NCBI GenBank assembly: GCA_013374835.1
Contig: CP055307.1
Location: 10,447 to 74,446 of the forward strand
Length of the DNA stretch: 64,000 bases
Direction: 5' to 3'
Source: Candidatus Woesebacteria bacterium
GTDB taxonomy: Bacteria > Patescibacteriota > Microgenomatia > UBA8517
The notes beneath the pieces are model-generated. The model saw only the letters and a list, made by a program, of their open reading frames with translations, searched no databases and was not told where the DNA came from. Made by a program: the position numbers and the translations under genes. This document shows positions 8,217-64,000 of this stretch, in pieces (position 1 is the first letter of the stretch; the number at the start of each line of letters is the position of its first letter).

Positions 8217-9295
8217 AATTCATAATTATTTATCCAGATTACGTAGTCAAGGCCATCGACCTTGTGGTCGTTATTAAAATCCCCTTGAGAAACACTCTTT
8301 TCTTCTGAATTCATACCATAATTATCTACCCAAATAACATAATCAAGGCCATCGACCTTGCCATCCCCGTTTGCATCTCCCAACTTAGAAGGAGTAATTG
8401 AAGGGCTAGGAGAAATAGAGGGAAAAGTAGTAGGGATAGATGAGGGTGACTGTGTGGGGGTAGAAGTTTGTGTGGGATAGGGGGTAAAGACTGGACTAGC
8501 GGTAGGTAAAGGGGTATGATTTGTATGAGATTGCGAGATAGCAACATCATCGACGTAAATACTTACATGAGAGGGGGAGATGCTGTCTGTATAATTATTT
8601 ACACTCCACTGAATAGGAGTATCTGTAAGGGCTGTATGAGCTGATGGTACGTCAAAAATCTTCTGACCGTCCTGCCAGATAGCTACTCGTCCAGAATTTC
8701 CTGTATCAAGACGATAAAACCCTTCAATTAAAAACCACCTATCCCTAGGTACAGCAATGGGGTTAGTTTGCCGATATATCTTTTTTAAGCTATTACTATC
8801 AGGACGATAATAGAGCATAAGACTTACCGGATTTGTATTACCAGCAGTTCCTGCGTCTAAAGACCACATTGGAGTTGAGACGTTTGATGAACTTAGAGAT
8901 TTCCATTGCCAGATGTTCCACCATGCCCCGGGATTAATATTTGAGGGAATATAGTACCACGCCGAGAAATAGTTTTCTTTTGTAGGAAGCGCTTTCCACC
9001 TAAACAGATAGGCAGCTTGGGATCCCCCAGCAGAGAGGTCGATTTCGAGTGCTACTGCGTATTTTCCTGAATGAACGGGGAAGCTAACAACTGTTGCTTT
9101 ACCACTTACTCCCTGCCTAATAAAATCACCTCCGCCATCAGAATTCCAATCGGATATGTTCCCACTTTCAAAGCCAGTAGACCACAAGACTGAACTTTGA
9201 GCATAAGAGAAGGAAGGAAATAAATAAATACATAAAAATAAAATAAAAGAGATTGATATAAATACTTTTCTTATGTACATAAACAATTTTCTCAA
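8213..9295 (-). CDS. secreted jelly-roll-type protein with PT-rich linker and C-terminal tandem dockerin-like module
   Basis: Signal peptide (ISFILFLCIYLFPSFSYA). A 'PTQTSTPTQSPSSIPTTFPSISPSPSITP' linker is followed by 'KLGDANGDGKVDGLDYVIWVDNYG…QGDFNNDHKVDGLDYVIWINNY'. The stop overlaps the upstream gene's start (ATGA-type overlap). Confidence 0.6.
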   Translation of the reverse strand: MRKLFMYIRKVFISISFILFLCIYLFPSFSYAQSSVLWSTGFESGNISDWNSDGGGDFIRQGVSGKATVVSFPVHSGKYAVALEIDLSAGGSQAAYLFRWKALPTKENYFSAWYYIPSNINPGAWWNIWQWKSLSSSNVSTPMWSLDAGTAGNTNPVSLMLYYRPDSNSLKKIYRQTNPIAVPRDRWFLIEGFYRLDTGNSGRVAIWQDGQKIFDVPSAHTALTDTPIQWSVNNYTDSISPSHVSIYVDDVAISQSHTNHTPLPTASPVFTPYPTQTSTPTQSPSSIPTTFPSISPSPSITPSKLGDANGDGKVDGLDYVIWVDNYGMNSEEKSVSQGDFNNDHKVDGLDYVIWINNYEL

Positions 9296-57962: not shown

Positions 57963-58170
57963 ACCCAGACTGTGTTAACCACAATCAGGGTAGCTGGTTT
58001 AAATTTTAAAAAGGTGCGAATTCAGATTGTTATCTGAAATCTAAAGAGAAAGGTACAAAGAAAAGTCTAATGACCGATTCGTGCAAAGTAAGCTTAATTC
58101 CTTACGGAACTTCCACTTCCTGCCGATCAACCTGATGTTCTTTCAGGAGTCTAAGAGCCCTCATCTTGGG

Positions 58171-58209
<39 letters not shown>

Positions 58210-58394
58210 AGGAATGTAGCTACCCGGCGCTGCCGCTGACGCGACAACCGGCACACTAGGGATTCCCCCTTCCTGGTCCTCTCGTACTGAGGAAAGCTCC
58301 CCTCAAGGCTCCAACGCACACACCGGATAGAGTCCGAGCTGTCTCGCGACGCTCTGAACCCAGCTCACGTACCACTTTAATGGGCGAACAGACC

Positions 58395-58427
<33 letters not shown>

Positions 58428-59013
58428 GTGAGCCGACATCGAGGTAGCGAACCGCGCCGTCGATATGGACTCTCGGGCGCGACTACTCTGTTATCCCCGG
58501 GGTAACTTTTATCCGTTAAGCCCCATCCATTCCCACAATGAGATGGGGGATCACTAAGACCTGCTTTCGCACTAGCTCCACCCGTCGGTGTCGCTATCAA
58601 GCTGGCTTATAGCTTTACCCTTAATCCGCCATTTCCATCGGCGGAAAGCCAACCTTTGTACCCCTGCGTTACCTTTTGGCAGGGTACCGCCCCAGTAAAA
58701 CTGCCCATCTGACACTTTTCCTGAACCCGTCTTCAGGGCCCTTAGGTAAGCCTTTTAATCTTCGAAGGGTGGTATCACACTGGCTCCCGATTAAATCGGG
58801 ATCCCACCTATTCTTGACAATCGAGGACTAAAGGAGGCAATGCCAGACTACAGTAAAGCTCCACGGGGTCTATTTGTCCTGGTGTGTGTAGGCCGCGTCT
58901 TCACAGCCACCGCAATTTCGCCGGGTGGATTTTCAAGACAGTTGTTAGCTCGTTACGCCTTTCGTGCGGGTCTAAACTTACTAGACAAGGAACTTCGCTA
59001 CCGTAGAACAGTT

Positions 59014-59762
59014 CATTTTTGTTACATTGAATACTTAAATATTCCTTAAGTATTCAAAGATTCTGTCATTTCTGCAGAATTCTCCGACTCTCGCCGGAGA
59101 TCGGACTATATCATCCCCACTTGGTATAAAACTCTGTGGAGGCTAACGTATAGTCTCTGGGGATTCCAAAACATCACTAATTGAATATTTTCTTTTTCTT
59201 CCTTTACCTTTGTTAAGCTTCTCTCTTATTTCAAGCAGTTTCAAAAGCCCATCTTTTTCAAGATGTTTTTTGTCATACATTATTTTCACAGCTTTTTTAA
59301 AAAGAGAAAAATTTCTCTTTTTAGTGTTTGAAAAAAAACTATATTTGGTAAAGAAAGGTATTATTTTTTCCTGAATTGCGGTTGGATTAGTAACATCAAA
59401 AGAATATAAACCATCTTTTCTTTGTTTGATAATTCCACAACCTAAATAACGTTTCATCAAAGCAAGAATTGTCCTTTCTCTTTGAGAAACATTAAAAGAT
59501 AAAACAGGTTGCCATCTTTGCTTATAATCGATTTTGTGGCGGAGTGAGATATTAAAACTTCCTTCTCCGTCAACAAAACCTGCAAAATACCAACCAATTT
59601 TTTCAGGAACTTTTATTCTGGACTGTTTTGGTCTTTCCTGCTGATTATCTCTATTCATCTGATTGTCACTGCTATTAAGGTAAATTTAGCTTAACAGCAG
59701 TACAGATGACCTGTCAAGATTTCCCAGCATATAGTTAGCTTTTACAACTACTATTTAATCTA
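59014..59762 (-). mobile_element. group-I-type intron in 23S rRNA, inserted between positions equivalent to E. coli U1917 and A1918 (helix 69), carrying a homing-endonuclease ORF
   Basis: Exon sequence '…GGCAGCAGUAACUAU' | intron | 'AACUGUUCUACGGUAGCGAAGUUCC…' aligns with E. coli 'GGCCGUAACUAU|AACGGUCCUAAGGUAGCGAAAUUCC'. The upstream exon ends in U and the intron ends in G (omega-G). The 749 nt between have no 23S similarity. Confidence 0.75.
59143..59658 (-). CDS. LAGLIDADG family homing endonuclease (single-motif, I-CreI-like homodimer type), intron-encoded
   Basis: A single 'YFAGFVDGEGSF' LAGLIDADG motif followed by the typical basic DNA-binding scaffold. 171 aa, located inside the 23S intron. 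Confidence 0.8.
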   Translation of the reverse strand: MNRDNQQERPKQSRIKVPEKIGWYFAGFVDGEGSFNISLRHKIDYKQRWQPVLSFNVSQRERTILALMKRYLGCGIIKQRKDGLYSFDVTNPTAIQEKIIPFFTKYSFFSNTKKRNFSLFKKAVKIMYDKKHLEKDGLLKLLEIREKLNKGKGRKRKYSISDVLESPETIR

Positions 59763-60588
59763 ATAGTTACTGCTGCCGTTTACCGGAGCTTCGGTTCAAA
59801 GCCCTGTGCAAAGCACGGACAGATCCCCTTAACTTACCGGCACTGGGCAGGCGTCAGCCCGTATACTTAAGATTTTCTCTTTTGCACGGACCTGTGTTTT
59901 TGATAAACAGTCGACTAACAATCATTAGCTGCGGTCCCGCCATGGGCGGGACAGGACATCTTGCGAACTTACGTCCAGCTTGTTTGCCTAGTTCCTTAAA
60001 AATCCTTCTCCCGATCGCCTTAGTATTCTCTACCTACCCACCTGTGTTGGTTTACGGTACGGCTTATTTGGGCACTCACTGCGAACCTTTTCTTGCAGGC
60101 TATTAACCAGAATCACCCTACTCTCGTAAGGCTTTGCACCACCCCGATTAAACGCAAGAGCGGATTTTCCATCTCTCACTACCGAGACTTCTGCACTTTA
60201 CTTCACGAAAAAGCTCTGATTTTTTCACCTTGTCAGTCCCCAGCTACCCCGCATAGCGGGGTTTGGCGCACCCAAACAAGTACTGGAATTTTAACCAGCT
60301 ATCCATCGGCTACGCCATATGGCCTTACCTTAGGAGCCGACTAACCCCTGGCAGACGAACTTCACCAGGGAAACCTTGGGTTTTCGGCGGTCCGGATTCT
60401 CACCGGACTTGTACGCTACTCATACCGGCATTCTCACTCCCATCCGTTCCACCTAACTTTACAGTTCGGCTTCACCACGAATGGGACGCTCCCCTACCAC
60501 GTCCCGCTAAGCGGGACATCTCTAGCTTCGGCACTTGGCTTATCCTCGATAAATCTTCGGCGCACGCTCTCGGTCGACCAGTGAGCTG

Positions 60589-60639
<51 letters not shown>

Positions 60640-61154
60640 AAGAGAGTGTACTTCCTTTCAAACTTAGTCAAGATTTAGAGGCCTTAGCTGAGAGTCTGGG
60701 TTGTTTCCCTTTTGTCGTACGAGCTTAGCCCCGTACGGCTGTATGCTAAACATCCTTATCAGTATTCGGAGTTTGGTTGATCACGATTGCTTTCGCTCTC
60801 GTGACCATCCAGTAGCTCTACCCCTGATAAGTTTTTATTTAACACGGTCCCTATAGACCTTTCGGGGAGAACCAGCTATCTCCAGGTCCGATTGGCATAT
60901 TACCGCTATCCACAAGTCATCCGAGCAAATTGCAACTTACACCGGTTCGGGCGTCCGCCACGCTTTCGCGTAACCTCCCCCTGCTCATGGATAGATCACC
61001 TGGTTTCGGGTCTGCCACACAGTACAAAATCGCGCTATTAACACTCGCTTTCGCTATGCCTTCCCCTTTTAGCAGGGTTAAGCCGCACTGTGAGACAACT
61101 CGCCGGTTCATTCTTCAATAGGCACGAGATCACCCGCTCGCAGAGCAGGAAGTT

Positions 61155-61285
61155 CCAAGATCTAATAATCAAATTGTAAACAAATTCCAACTCCAAAATT
61201 ACAAGCTTGACTTCAAACTTTCGCTATTTAAGGTTTGTAATTTGGTTATTGTTTGTGATTTGATATTTGTGATTTGAAATTTCCT
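61155..61285 (-). other. AT-rich IVS-like expansion in 23S domain I (helix-25 region)
   Basis: A ~130-nt, >75% AT insertion between conserved blocks corresponding to E. coli ~530-560. It forms a long imperfect hairpin (CAAATTACAA…TTGTAATTTG). Confidence 0.5.
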
Positions 61286-61764
61286 GTTCTACGAACAGGC
61301 TCTCTCGGTTTGTCCGCAAACAGTTTCAGTTACTATTTCACTCCCCTCCCGGGGTGCTTTTCACCTTTCCCTTACGGTACTAGTTCACTATCGGTCACCA
61401 ACCATATTTAGCCTTGGAGGATGGTTCCCCCAGATTCATCCGAAGTTGTCGATCGGATTACTCAGGATACCCATAGGCGCTTTGCAAGGATTTCGTGTAC
61501 AAGACTTTCACTTTCTATGGCCAACCATTCCAGATTGTTCCACTATCCCCAAAGCTACCACGTCTGGGTCCTACAACCCCCCGATAGCCTCCCGAAGGAG
61601 ATCATCGAGGTTTGGGCTTTTGCCTTTTCGCTCGCCGCTACTTGGGCAATCTTTAATTTAATTTCTTTTCCTCACCTTACTTAGATGTTTCAGTTCAGGT
61701 GGTACCCCACTTCATCGCTATATACCCTGCATTCTATGCACAAATCACGCTCTGCTGCGACGAA

Positions 61765-61870
61765 AAATACAAGATCACAAATTGTAAATTACAAACAATA
61801 CTCAATTTACAAAATTAAAAAACCAAAACTTCATATTTTGAATTTGTAATTTTTGCAAAGCTAATTACTT
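61765..61870 (-). other. AT-rich IVS-like expansion near the 23S 5' end (helix-9/10 region)
   Basis: About 105 extra AT-rich nt between 'TTAGATGTTTCAGTTC' and 'GGGTTTCCCCATTCGG' relative to E. coli. It forms a hairpin (ACAAATTGTAAATTACAAA…TTTGTAATTTTTG) and shares the 'CAAATTGTAAA' core with the other insertion. Confidence 0.45.
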
Positions 61871-62083
61871 ATGAACAGAATGCAAGGTATTTTTACGATG
61901 AGTTACTCCGAGATAAATCGGAGTGGGTTTCCCCATTCGGAAACCGCCGGATCACAGGATCGTGGCTCCTACCCGGCGAGTATCGCCGCCATGTGCGTCC
62001 TTCATCGGTGGTTGATGCCAAGGCATCCACTGTCTGCGTTGTGTAGACTTTCGACCTTTCTCTTCAGATGTCAAAGAGCAAAG

Positions 62084-62157: not shown

Positions 62158-62331
62158 AAGTCCAAAAAATATGTCAAAACGGTTTGAGACGGAGACTTTG
62201 GAAGCTATCCTTAAGGCAGTAAAAAAGAAACTTTTCTCATTAAATTGGTATTTATGCTTCTCATTTATTCCGAACTCAAACTATAACTATTATATAGATA
62301 AGGTCAAGGTGAGTCAATAGCCTAGCAATAC

Positions 62332-62360
62332 TTGACATTTAGCACTCTTAATGATAGAAT
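62332..62360 (+). promoter_or_regulatory. sigma70-type promoter (TTGACA-17-TAGAAT)
   Basis: A perfect -35 at 62332-37 and a near-consensus -10 at 62355-60, with a 17-nt spacer. Confidence 0.4.
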
Positions 62361-62506
62361 GCTTACATTACAGGATATCACTTCTTTAATAAACTTACTA
62401 AAAATGATTCACTTCCCATAAGTACTTGAAAAATGATTGGTTGGCTAGAAGACGTTAGACAAGGGGGTGTGGCCTACCGTGGCGACATGGGACGCGCTGC
62501 GCCTCA

Positions 62507-62821
62507 TTGTCTGAGGCCTTTTGGTCTTTTGATAATTTTTATAAAGAAGATGGAGAGCCATTAATTTTTGAGCTAAGGCAGGGTGAAAAAACTGCGAAAG
62601 CAAAAGTAGTGGATATTTCTACTGTACATGTTGACGATTATTATCAAGGAACATTTTTCAGAAGCAGTGATAATAAAAGATATTATGTTGATCGAGAAAA
62701 AATTGGTCTTCCGAAAAACGTTCTGGCAGAAGATCAAATAACATTTGTTGTATGCTCCGGGGAGTACATCGACGGCGAATGGAGTGAGCGGATGCTATTG
62801 ACAATTGAAAAAACACCTTGA
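62507..62821 (+). CDS. hypothetical protein (TTG start; the 5' end is uncertain)
   Basis: A 104-codon ORF of non-repetitive composition. It is followed immediately by a strong intrinsic terminator, and a promoter lies ~170 nt upstream. There is no ATG/GTG in frame after the upstream stop at 62456, and no clear SD. Confidence 0.4.
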   Translation: MSEAFWSFDNFYKEDGEPLIFELRQGEKTAKAKVVDISTVHVDDYYQGTFFRSSDNKRYYVDREKIGLPKNVLAEDQITFVVCSGEYIDGEWSERMLLTIEKTP

Positions 62822-62837
62822 GCTTACTTCATAAATG

Positions 62838-62925
62838 GCTTTCTGCGGTCAAGCCTGCTTAAAGGCAAGATAAACGATTAAACTTGCCGAAGAAACAGGC
62901 TTGATCGCAGAAAGCCCTTTTGTAA
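62838..62925 (+). terminator. rho-independent terminator (20-bp stem with inner helix, then CCTTTTG)
   Basis: GCTTTCTGCGGTCAAGCCTG … CAGGCTTGATCGCAGAAAGC pairs at 19 of 20 positions, with an inner GGCAAG/CTTGCC helix, then 'CCTTTTGTAAAAAAAAA'. It starts 17 nt after the stop codon. Confidence 0.6.
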
Positions 62926-63083
62926 AAAAAAACCAAGTTATGCAATAATAATTTACATGGATGAAAGAAATAGGAAGCTTACTTATTTTTTGATTATTCT
63001 TGACTTTTTTCTGATGATAGTACTTGGCCTTTTAGTGGCTGAAATTTTGAAACAGACCGTCTTTATGGTAAATTAAGTGGCGT

Positions 63084-63107
63084 GAACCCGTAGCTCAGCT
63101 GGTTAGA
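63084..63107 (+). other. 24-nt duplicate of the 5' end of tRNA-Ile (with 3 preceding nt this makes a 27-bp direct repeat with 63397..63423), i.e. a tRNA gene fragment
   Basis: 'cgtGAACCCGTAGCTCAGCTGGTTAGA' occurs at 63081-63107 and again at 63397-63423. The upstream copy diverges after 'TTAGA' into the palindrome CCTGCCTGCCGGCAGGCAGG. Confidence 0.7.
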
Positions 63108-63131
63108 CCTGCCTGCCGGCAGGCAGGGCGC

Positions 63132-63401
63132 ATGAATGTGATGAAATACTTTGTATATATCATATATAATCTTAGAGATAAAAAGTATTATACAGGAATC
63201 ACTAACGATTTATTTAGAAGGTTGAAAGAGCACAACAAAATAGGATCTAGTACGATAACTACAACTAATAGAAATTCTTTTATAATAGTGCACACAGAAC
63301 AATGTGAAGATAGGGATAAAGCTAGGGAAAGAGAATTGTTTTGGAAAAGCGGATATGGAAGAGAGTTGCGAGATAAGTTCATGAGGAATTTGATTTCGTG
63401 A
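63132..63401 (+). CDS. small stand-alone GIY-YIG nuclease (YhbQ/UPF0213-like, 89 aa)
   Basis: 'KYFVYIIYNLRDKKYYTGITNDLFRRLKEHN' contains the GIY…YIG…R…E…N catalytic core, and only the catalytic domain is present. The stop TGA overlaps the first two nt of the tRNA-Ile gene. Confidence 0.7.
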   Translation: MNVMKYFVYIIYNLRDKKYYTGITNDLFRRLKEHNKIGSSTITTTNRNSFIIVHTEQCEDRDKARERELFWKSGYGRELRDKFMRNLIS

Positions 63402-63473
63402 ACCCGTAGCTCAGCTGGTTAGAGCGCCAAACTGATAATTTGGAGGTCCCTGGTTCGAGTCCAGGCGGGTTCA
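63400..63473 (+). tRNA. tRNA-Ile (anticodon GAU)
   Basis: GAACCCG-TA-GCTC-AGCTGGTTA-GAGC-G-CCAAA-CTGATAA-TTTGG-AGGTC-CCTGG-TTCGAGT-CCAGG-CGGGTTC-A. All stems are Watson-Crick. Length 74 nt. Confidence 0.85.
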
Positions 63474-63507
63474 CAGAGAACGGTGCATAATCATATATAA
63501 TAAGATT

Positions 63508-64000
63508 ATGAGCCTTGCCACCCTTCTTCTTAAGATACCGAGAAATAATGACGTTACTCCCGAAGCAGCAAAAACATTTCTTTCGACGCTGACTCAGATA
63601 AACAGCGTTTCAAGATTAAACCGCTTGCTGGGGAAAAAACCTCTTCCCTTTTCTTTGGAGATTGCACTGATTAACCAACAGATAAAATTCTTTGTAACAT
63701 GCGATGAGAAGCTCGTGCCTTTTGTAGAAGCGCAAATTAAAAGCAGTTACCCACTTGTGATTATTGAGAAACATGCTGATCCTATTTCTGATATTGAAAA
63801 CCTTATTACTTCTTCTTTGTCCTTAAAAAAAGGCAACTATTATCCAATTGCTACTTATAAAAATTTTGAAGATGTTGATCCGCTTTCATCCCTTTTAACA
63901 ATTTTGTCCAAAGGGGATCCTAATGAATTTGCCATTATCCAATATGCAATATCAGGCGCCGGCTCCGGCTGGCAGTCTTCGGGGAAAATATTTGCAGAGC
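63508..64000 (+). CDS. hypothetical protein, 3'-partial (runs off the window end)
   Basis: ATG at 63508 and an open frame of 164 codons to the window edge ('MSLATLLLKIPRNNDVTPEAAKTFLSTLTQ…'). Absent from the ORF track because it is incomplete. Confidence 0.45.
   Translation, partial: MSLATLLLKIPRNNDVTPEAAKTFLSTLTQINSVSRLNRLLGKKPLPFSLEIALINQQIKFFVTCDEKLVPFVEAQIKSSYPLVIIEKHADPISDIENLITSSLSLKKGNYYPIATYKNFEDVDPLSSLLTILSKGDPNEFAIIQYAISGAGSGWQSSGKIFAE

Follow-up and report, generated by a model that had tools for sequence, protein, structure and literature searches.

A tRNA-Ile(GAU) gene in the 64,000-nucleotide stretch analysed here (the window), from a Candidatus Woesebacteria bacterium, is occupied by a compact cassette that carries a GIY-YIG nuclease gene. 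The intact tRNA gene, on the plus strand at 63400..63473 (63400-63473/4 by ARAGORN; Rfam, 73.7 bits), lies 3′ of an open reading frame (ORF) of 89 amino acids (aa) on the same strand (63132..63401), the stop codon of which (TGA, 63399-63401) overlaps the first two nucleotides (nt) of the tRNA. Upstream of the ORF, the trinucleotide cgt followed by GAACCCGTAGCTCAGCTGGTTAGA (63081..63107, plus strand) is an exact copy of 63397-63423, that is, of three leader nt plus nt 1-24 of tRNA-Ile. This half-tRNA pseudo-copy runs into a perfect palindrome of 20 nt, CCTGCCTGCCGGCAGGCAGG (63108..63127, assigned to neither strand), which is recognized as a unit from dispersed copies and an insertion polymorphism (see below) and separates tRNA nt 24 from nt 25 within the pseudo-copy: on its 3′ side GCGC (63128..63131, plus strand, by direct reading) equals tRNA-Ile nt 25-28. 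As nt 25-28 resume there, the palindrome interrupts a copy of at least 31 nt and does not end it. Possibly the pseudo-copy extends further in degenerate form toward the anticodon loop (TGAT, 63139-63142), overlapping the ORF start, and the true start of the ORF may be the second ATG, at 63141. Further upstream, a consensus scan found a promoter-like site (TTGAAA, a 16-nt spacer and TAAATT preceded by TG; nine of 12 matches) at 63047..63074 on the plus strand.

The 27-nt repeat, the 20-nt palindrome, the 89-aa ORF with its stop codon over the first two tRNA bases, and the intact tRNA had all been described in an earlier reading made from the letters without database searches (the sequence-only reading), and all were re-found at the same coordinates, far beyond chance. 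In the window the tRNA-Ile 24-mer has exactly two occurrences (none expected from 100 shuffles), and the palindromic 20-mer has one, even with up to three mismatches allowed, again with none expected; it is the sole GC-rich palindrome of its kind of ≥12 nt within the 64 kb. Chance similarity of the repeat or the palindrome was thereby ruled out, and the coincidental 27-bp identity that the sequence-only reading had named as its own alternative falls with it. In all cassettes (see below) the equivalent fragment matches the tRNA of its own locus. An assembly or adapter artefact was likewise ruled out for the palindrome by recovery of the same arrangement from JGI, ENA, Logan and NCBI assemblies, by mutated variants and by contiguous flanks in a polymorphic pair. 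Nor is the cassette arrangement itself an artefact, since close relatives assembled independently (JGI, ENA and Logan) have it too. Scanning the window cassette against Rfam returned the tRNA and spurious hairpin matches only, and no known RNA family or intron remnant.

On sequence grounds the cassette ORF is a member of the GIY-YIG superfamily. The 89-aa protein matches Pfam GIY-YIG PF01541 over residues 5-77 (E = 7.9e-17; 61.8 bits versus a cutoff of 22.6), and Y9, Y20, G22, R30, H34 and E68 are invariant across 21 homologs; we take these residues to have the catalytic and metal-binding roles established for the GIY-YIG fold. Residues of catalytic type are kept in homologs at 40-60% identity. 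The protein is a single domain without auxiliary domains (residues 5-77 of 89), and neither a second domain nor a C-terminal DNA-binding module was detected in it. Scans of the protein with NCBIfam gave nothing above cutoff (TIGR01453, 21 bits versus 56), and the PADLOC scan for defence systems gave only a weak homing-endonuclease match. The closest solved structures are the UPF0213 proteins 1ywl (E = 1.2e-6) and 1zg2 (E = 1.2e-4), at 32 bits. The label ‘YhbQ-type' in the sequence-only reading fits loosely: it captures the closest solved relatives (UPF0213, E = 1e-6) but not the distinct tRNA-linked clade to which the protein belongs.

That clade emerged from a neighbour-joining tree, in which 20 of 20 tRNA-linked proteins form one group, apart from the Ssn-type proteins. 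A C-terminal KSGxGR motif is found in 18 of the 20 tRNA-linked proteins versus none of 70 others. Within the tree the tRNA identities are interleaved, which indicates that lineages switched tRNA species over time. Ssn proteins are single-domain GIY-YIG nucleases of ~94 aa that bind hairpin repeats flanking their own gene and cut only single-stranded DNA (ssDNA) beside them (PMC11893778). The window protein shares 43% identity over 65 aa (45 bits) with the protein of locus L047, the gene of which is flanked on both sides by canonical Ssn-related motifs (SRMs). Among 80 relatives, the SRM regular expression (an HGTCWY...RNCYNB hairpin, the pattern of the Ssn authors) matched only L047 and L077, with no match around the window ORF or any tRNA-linked cassette. 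Membership of the window protein in the Ssn family (cd10448), compared by proxy via L047, is not established.

Two neighbouring observations concern such proteins and their repeats. At L182 (4913-5538) a ~110-nt repeat (tgtcatatcgaggg...gggatgaca), which starts like an SRM (TGTCAT...), stands in two copies after a GIY-YIG gene of Ssn type (with an FTKRY...NPQW tail); the 20-nt palindrome is inserted mid-copy in both, and GTCAT...-type flanks similar to those of L182 are seen at L094, L111, L137, L148 and L170. At L017 (2765-2864) a member of the clade precedes tRNA-Pro, but no tRNA fragment could be detected; the space between ORF and tRNA holds a 47-nt repeat in two tandem copies, both of which contain a GC-rich hairpin (gatgcaggcgggggcgtgccccgttgcatc).

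Loci for comparison came from three sources: a scan that took one genome per species, a scan for the exact palindrome in metagenome and viral contigs, and the loci of the closest homologs. The cassette layout recurs at about two dozen independent loci and ~15 tRNA species, mostly in the Candidate Phyla Radiation (CPR)/Patescibacteria. The first examples beyond Ile were L005 (tRNA-His) and L010 (tRNA-Asn), where a fragment of the adjacent tRNA is split by the same or a near-identical palindrome. The form found in the window, with a 5′ half-copy, is present at genes for tRNA-Ile (the window family, and L308 in a different neighbourhood), His (L005, L015, L309 and L310), Asn (L010, L014, L136 and L244), Gly (L013 and L027), Val-TAC (L016), Gln (L018 and L019), Ser-GGA (L142), Lys (L165), Arg-TCG (L186) and Arg-ACG (L255). 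At tRNA-Leu (L191) the ORF is decayed, and at tRNA-Val-GAC (L171) fragment and palindrome stand without an ORF. A mirror form was found at tRNA-Ser-TGA, Glu and Ser-GCT (L028, L092 and L144).

In the 5′ form the consensus begins with a promoter region and tRNA positions from about −3 to x; a GC-rich palindrome separates these from positions x+1 to y, after which come the GIY-YIG ORF and the intact tRNA, with y usually in the anticodon stem or loop and the ORF stop at or within the 5′ end of the intact tRNA. In relatives the segment that follows the palindrome matches the tRNA over 9-17 nt, up to the anticodon loop. In the mirror form the intact tRNA comes first, followed by the ORF and then by a 3′ half-copy that begins at about nt 41-44 and is interrupted by CCGG-centred palindromes near the T-loop. 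In both forms, therefore, the ORF runs between the outer end of the intact tRNA and the anticodon region of the dead half-copy. The acceptor strand of the fragment is identical to that of the adjacent tRNA (7 of 7 nt) in 12 of 16 cassettes, which marks the fragment as a true local duplicate, and cassettes share no neighbourhood except the tRNA itself. In L027 (3800-3900), a contig from a metagenome-assembled genome, AT-rich sequence gives way abruptly to very GC-rich sequence, and the change coincides exactly with a second copy of the palindrome. The contig is probably a chimera, joined at the repeat during assembly, and its label, ‘Gammaproteobacteria', is doubtful.

Orthologous tRNA-Ile loci without the cassette were found in more distant relatives. 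Woesebacteria-like genomes conserve the VirD4-like gene found 3′ of the window tRNA-Ile. Directly upstream of it in L248 (72% ortholog identity) stands tRNA-Ile(GAU), with only AT-rich promoter-like sequence before the tRNA; L252 (70% ortholog identity) shares with the window the divergent arrangement tRNA-Ala(−)/tRNA-Ile(+), again with the tRNA immediately after the promoter. At both, an AT-rich promoter region similar to that of the window directly abuts the tRNA, and neither tRNA-Ile locus holds an ORF, a fragment or a palindrome. The close relatives L001-L004, L253 and L254 all carry the cassette. As judged from these comparisons, the cassette is an insertion that keeps the tRNA by duplicating half of its gene: the same layout at many tRNAs and the empty orthologous sites bear out the earlier suggestion of an insertion with partial duplication that regenerates the tRNA, and make a minimal mobile nuclease element that lands in tRNA genes a fair description.

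Between the window and L001, the cassette ORF is 96.3% identical and the flanks are 95.5-96.5% identical, and fragment, palindrome and tRNA are the same in both. Since the ORF has diverged like its flanks and all close relatives have the cassette, the insertion is older than these strains and has been stably inherited; turnover is exemplified by the decayed ORF of L191 and by the fragment plus palindrome without ORF of L171. Stable vertical inheritance would also suit a domesticated or ordinary host gene (for DNA repair, control of transforming DNA or maintenance of the tRNA locus), with the half-copy as a by-product of local duplication. So would the five synonymous versus five non-synonymous codon differences, which suggest mild purifying selection, the catalytic residues kept across the clade, and the domestication that the Ssn authors propose for Neisseria SsnA. 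We nevertheless hold a host gene to be improbable, given the ~15 tRNA species with identities interleaved on the protein tree, the empty orthologous sites, the ORF decayed in L191 and absent from L171, and the tRNA as the only conserved neighbour.

The palindrome has a distribution of its own. Exact matches to the 20-mer were found in at least 120 metagenome stretches and in 35 viral-contig stretches, with at least 169 copies in at least 166 non-redundant contexts; the census comprises at least 155 loci that span 29-71% GC. Among the palindrome matches listed, nine copies have a GIY-YIG ORF at a distance of ≤700 nt and 14 have a tRNA at ≤800 nt. The search for further copies thus turned up the palindrome elsewhere in abundance, along with relatives of the ORF at ~15 tRNA species, and a single palindrome in the window. 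An insertion polymorphism was found at tRNA-Met genes: L237 and L214 have exactly 20 nt between ...CACGAGG and TCGCCGG..., in the variable loop, and the phage-like contigs L311 and L312 have the tRNA-Met and the homologous downstream gene without the 20-mer. In the cassettes the palindrome is placed in like manner, separating tRNA nucleotides that are otherwise adjacent. No target duplication was seen in the polymorphic tRNA-Met case or inside tRNA fragments; among stand-alone copies, 9.9% are flanked by direct repeats of ≥8 nt versus 1.7% of controls. These data show the 20-bp palindrome to be an independent, precisely inserting miniature element. No match to the 20-mer was found in the open-access literature.

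Inside the tRNA fragments, the palindrome follows nt 9-14 or nt 21-24 (either side of the D-loop) and once nt 31, and some fragments hold two copies. The identical 20-mer is present in cassettes at other tRNAs, and every well-resolved cassette has this 20-mer or a related CCGG-centred palindrome within its pseudo-copy. Moreover, the palindrome-bearing loci (1.01 Mb in total) contain 10 GIY-YIG ORFs of this kind, 6 of which lie within 700 nt of a palindrome versus 20% expected (P = 0.006). Every cassette has a palindrome although it is sparse in the genome, and most palindromes lack a nearby nuclease gene.

These positions bear on the first proposal for the locus, a single element of ~316 bp with the palindrome as its left end, which would have inserted after nt 24 with a 27-bp target duplication and used the palindrome as a recognition site or terminator. 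An exact 27-nt repeat does enclose palindrome and ORF, and stand-alone palindromes are often found between short direct repeats (the 9.9% versus 1.7% given above). However, tRNA sequence continues past the palindrome (nt 25-28 in the window, 9-17 nt in relatives), the palindrome varies in position (nt 9-14, 21-24 and 31) and is doubled in some fragments, and it inserts alone, precisely and without duplication. Nor does it serve as the cassette junction, being nested in the pseudo-copy and having at least 169 exact copies elsewhere, nine of those listed near a GIY-YIG ORF; and as a site recognized in empty targets it fails because the uninterrupted tRNA-Ile gene has no palindrome. An intrinsic terminator was rejected: the palindrome is followed by GCGCATGAATG, without a T-run, and there are 0 terminator-like sites in 62800-63560; this role is further disfavoured because the ORF must be transcribed through the palindrome. 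We regard the single element as very improbable. A preference of the palindrome for the tips of pre-existing hairpins was dropped as a general rule, the signal being weak (stems of ≥7 bp in 1.9% versus 0.2%).

Several further observations were made on palindromes and their hosts. The phage-like tRNA-Met genes at L237 (2239-2330) and L214 (~8580-8650) may tolerate the palindrome in the variable loop as a long extra arm; in L214 the sequence 3′ of the palindrome is also rearranged. A 21-nt variant (one extra T) at L005 (3478-3498) lies in frame in a DUF4256 protein, as residues 15-21 (...PALPAGR...) of an N-terminal tail, the Pfam domain starting at residue 25. In P0002, P0012, P0017 and P0018, gene callers ran the ORFs upstream through palindrome and tRNA fragment, giving spurious N-terminal peptides (...DLPAGRQG..., GVAQLVRPACRQA..., also …LPAGRQ… and …PACRQA…). 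A ~95-nt hairpin of repeated half-units at L310 (~600-700) shows that the palindrome can grow. A second conserved hairpin insertion, of 35 nt (CCCGCCyGCCAyGC...GGCGTTGCGGGCAGG), sits on the 5′ side of the D-loop in the unrelated cassettes L019 (Gln) and L308 (Ile).

One tRNA-Asn gene, at L244 (478-3014; same contig as L256, from a viral-contig collection), carries three occupants: the GIY-YIG cassette and its 5′ half-copy; a gene for a 532-aa serine recombinase, abutting the 3′ end of the tRNA gene; and, at anticodon position 35/36, a group I intron (Rfam, 86 bits) with an HNH ORF. The half-copy crosses the intron site as intron-less sequence. The locus shows that the anticodon region of such tRNA genes is targeted by other selfish DNA too.

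Clustering at this region is what a classical free-standing homing endonuclease might produce, by cutting double-stranded DNA (dsDNA) near the anticodon loop of a cassette-less tRNA gene and having the cassette copied in from a donor by double-strand-break repair, with the palindrome as an unrelated passenger that happened to enter the dead half-copy. The fragment-ORF junctions cluster at the anticodon-loop region in the 5′ and mirror 3′ forms, the intron of L244 at position 35/36 of a cassette-bearing tRNA makes the site a homing hotspot, and the GIY-YIG homing nuclease SegB cuts inside tRNA genes. Weak, sub-threshold matches of the protein to models of group I intron and homing endonucleases, fragments resembling a foreign allele (see below), which fit gene conversion between genomes, and presence or absence of the cassette at a conserved target (L248 and L252 empty, at ~70% neighbouring-protein identity) point the same way. 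We consider classical homing unlikely all the same: with 81-89 aa and no DNA-binding domain the protein is unlike I-TevI or SegB, the intact tRNA beside the ORF keeps the putative target so that the host would cut itself, the closest characterized relatives (Ssn) do not cut dsDNA, and the palindrome in every cassette is left unaccounted for.

The same junctions could in principle stem from RNA, the 5′ tRNA half of a primary transcript having been joined to the ORF and reinserted via cDNA. The repeat begins where the predicted promoter would start transcription, fragments end near the anticodon loop, and the L244 fragment is intron-less across the intron site. An RNA-mediated origin is nonetheless extremely improbable, as none of the cassettes has a reverse transcriptase in it or nearby, the duplication passes the transcript start in L136 and may do so in the window as well (10 of 19 matches upstream of −3), and the mirror 3′ form does not need such a model.

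We favour, with a probability of about 0.6, a selfish gene cassette that lives within a tRNA transcription unit, is accompanied by an independent palindrome probably bound by its nuclease, and spreads by tRNA homology. A minimal GIY-YIG nuclease gene would have inserted into tRNA-Ile around the anticodon-loop region, with duplication of a 5′ tRNA half that starts a few nt before nt 1 and reaches about nt 28-38. The outcome would be the native promoter, a dead 5′ half-copy, the nuclease ORF and a complete tRNA, so that the host would retain a working tRNA. Having no promoter of its own, the ORF would be transcribed from the tRNA promoter (presumed native, an extended −10 ending at 63074); pseudo-copy, ORF and tRNA would then form one transcript from which RNase P would free the tRNA. 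When 63081-63480 is folded as RNA, the predicted minimum-energy structure pairs the 5′ strand of the half-copy with the 3′ acceptor strand of the real tRNA, enclosing the ORF (z = −3.8); on this model the half-copy could compete with correct folding of the tRNA.

As for the palindrome, it would be a second element whose insertion split the dead half-copy precisely at nt 24/25, a place where insertions would be tolerated as they would not be in the working tRNA. By analogy with Ssn, it probably forms an ssDNA hairpin that the nuclease binds and beside which it cuts; binding of this kind would link the two elements functionally. The cassettes probably pass between genomes by recombination on conserved tRNA homology, for which the phage nuclease SegB (see below) is a precedent.

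Six points weigh against this selfish-cassette reading. (i) Bootstrap support for the tRNA-linked clade is 58%. (ii) No cassette-free relative of >90% identity was found, and since empty sites occur only in relatives at ~70% neighbouring-protein identity, recent insertion is not demonstrated. (iii) In L015, L016, L165, L171, L309 and L310, the fragments disagree with the adjacent tRNA chiefly in the acceptor stem, as though they derived from another allele; neither simple duplication nor simple homologous recombination accounts for them. (iv) About 95% of the palindrome copies listed have no GIY-YIG ORF within 700 nt, in loci of 29-71% GC, so that enrichment and analogy are what joins nuclease and palindrome. 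(v) The window has one palindrome copy versus hundreds of repeats with Ssn. (vi) The window protein falls outside the clade of SRM-flanked Ssn-type proteins, and the SRM expression has no match at the cassette.

Among characterized systems, Ssn offers the closest parallels: a single-domain GIY-YIG protein of ~90 aa, encoded beside a GC-rich palindromic hairpin repeat that is dispersed elsewhere too. The Ssn authors liken the NTS-ssnA-NTS arrangement to an insertion sequence (Chenal et al. 2025, PMC11893778). The window protein differs in belonging to a separate clade with a KSGxGR tail rather than one of NPxWxDL type, and its repeat is a perfectly symmetric 20-mer outside the SRM pattern, with one copy in 64 kb. 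Unlike ssn genes, moreover, it sits in a tRNA gene with a half-tRNA duplication; tRNA is unmentioned in PMC11893778. SegB of phages T4 and T6 cuts within tRNA genes and drives recombination-dependent duplication of an adjacent segment (PMC13096335), and SegB genes, which lie among tRNA genes, are statistically tied to tRNAs of many isotypes (PMC2330249, PMC13096335), in likeness to the cassettes. SegB is, however, far larger, has a DNA-binding region, cuts dsDNA and lies between tRNA genes instead of splitting one, and neither a half-tRNA pseudo-copy nor a nested palindrome is described for it. The UPF0213/YhbQ-type proteins (PDB 1ywl and 1zg2) are minimal bacterial Slx1-like GIY-YIG domains without auxiliary domains (PMC1564403); by its features the window ORF could be called Ssn/Slx1-like, yet its similarity to UPF0213 is low (32 bits, versus 45 bits to the Ssn-type protein of L047), and no link of UPF0213 to tRNA or hairpins is described in PMC1564403.

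REP/RAYT and the ‘peel and paste' elements IS200/IS605 resemble the cassette in combining a small nuclease gene with dispersed short palindromic hairpins, and the 20-mer likewise inserts without target duplication. In those systems recognition is via an ssDNA hairpin and insertion leaves no target duplication. Their enzyme is a HUH tyrosine transposase and not a GIY-YIG nuclease; in the cassette, hairpins are not present at both gene ends and the repeat is 20 bp and perfectly symmetric. Genomic islands and prophages that target tRNA genes share the landing site and the restoration of the tRNA by a partial duplicate at the junction. Integrase-borne elements characteristically duplicate the 3′ part of the tRNA, while the window cassette duplicates the 5′ half up to the anticodon region; the cassette also has no integrase or tyrosine/serine recombinase gene, its cargo being one ORF of ~270 bp. 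Free-standing fungal mitochondrial GIY-YIG ORFs (for example, in Allomyces atp6) are inserted in an essential gene with a partial duplicate, so that an intact copy stands beside a dead fragment, and they co-occur with mobile GC-rich palindromic clusters in the AT-rich genome; there the target is an organelle protein-coding gene, the endonucleases are larger and the hairpin elements are different. By analogy, then, the cassette seems to resemble most closely a pairing of Ssn nuclease and hairpin lodged in a tRNA gene, with features of homing endonuclease genes and of tRNA-targeting elements. No description of the half-tRNA GIY-YIG architecture was found in the open-access literature.

The surroundings of the cassette comprise 5S and 23S rRNA with tRNA-Ala(UGC) on the minus strand and the VirD4/TraG-like ATPase gene downstream, and neighbouring genes and homologs place the window in the CPR/Patescibacteria (Microgenomates/Woesebacteria-like). 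The 23S rRNA match (58058-62053, minus strand) spans 3,996 nt versus a model of 2,925 positions, which implies ~1 kb of insertions within the gene; low-GC stretches lie at ~61100-61300 and ~61700-61900, and relatives have 23S-IVS-protein and LAGLIDADG ORFs near the 23S region. Just 3′ of the upstream ORF is a long hairpin element (62833-62920; 28-nt arms, 89% complementary), the ~72-bp core of which is exactly inverted relative to L001 (3703-3790), which suggests an invertible segment or recombination across the arms. In the interval from tRNA-Ala to the cassette, L001 (1085-3700) has ~1.9 kb that is absent from the window (62160-62830), including a 23S_rRNA_IVP-family gene and a 298-aa ORF.

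For annotation, the cassette accounts for recurrent 5′ and 3′ pseudo-fragments of tRNA and for spurious N-terminal ORF extensions. We tentatively propose two linked novelties, a new class of minimal mobile element (the GIY-YIG cassette) and a 20-bp ‘nano' insertion element mobilized in trans by Ssn-like nucleases. If so, a single-ORF cassette of ~270 bp without integrase or transposase would colonize tRNA genes by half-tRNA duplication, exploiting the tRNA promoter and using the tRNA as portable homology. The 20-bp palindrome would possibly be the smallest mobile DNA described, inserting precisely and without target duplication where DNA readily forms hairpins, for example in tRNA arms, in many bacterial phyla and their phages. 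Ssn-type ssDNA nucleases, the preference of selfish DNA for tRNA genes and short palindromic repeats would thereby be joined, and one small protein with one 20-nt hairpin would be a pair of interest for enzymology and ssDNA tools. In the tiny genomes of the CPR, a nuclease of 89 residues, with neither DNA-binding domain nor recombinase, would persist by splitting and repairing an essential tRNA gene.

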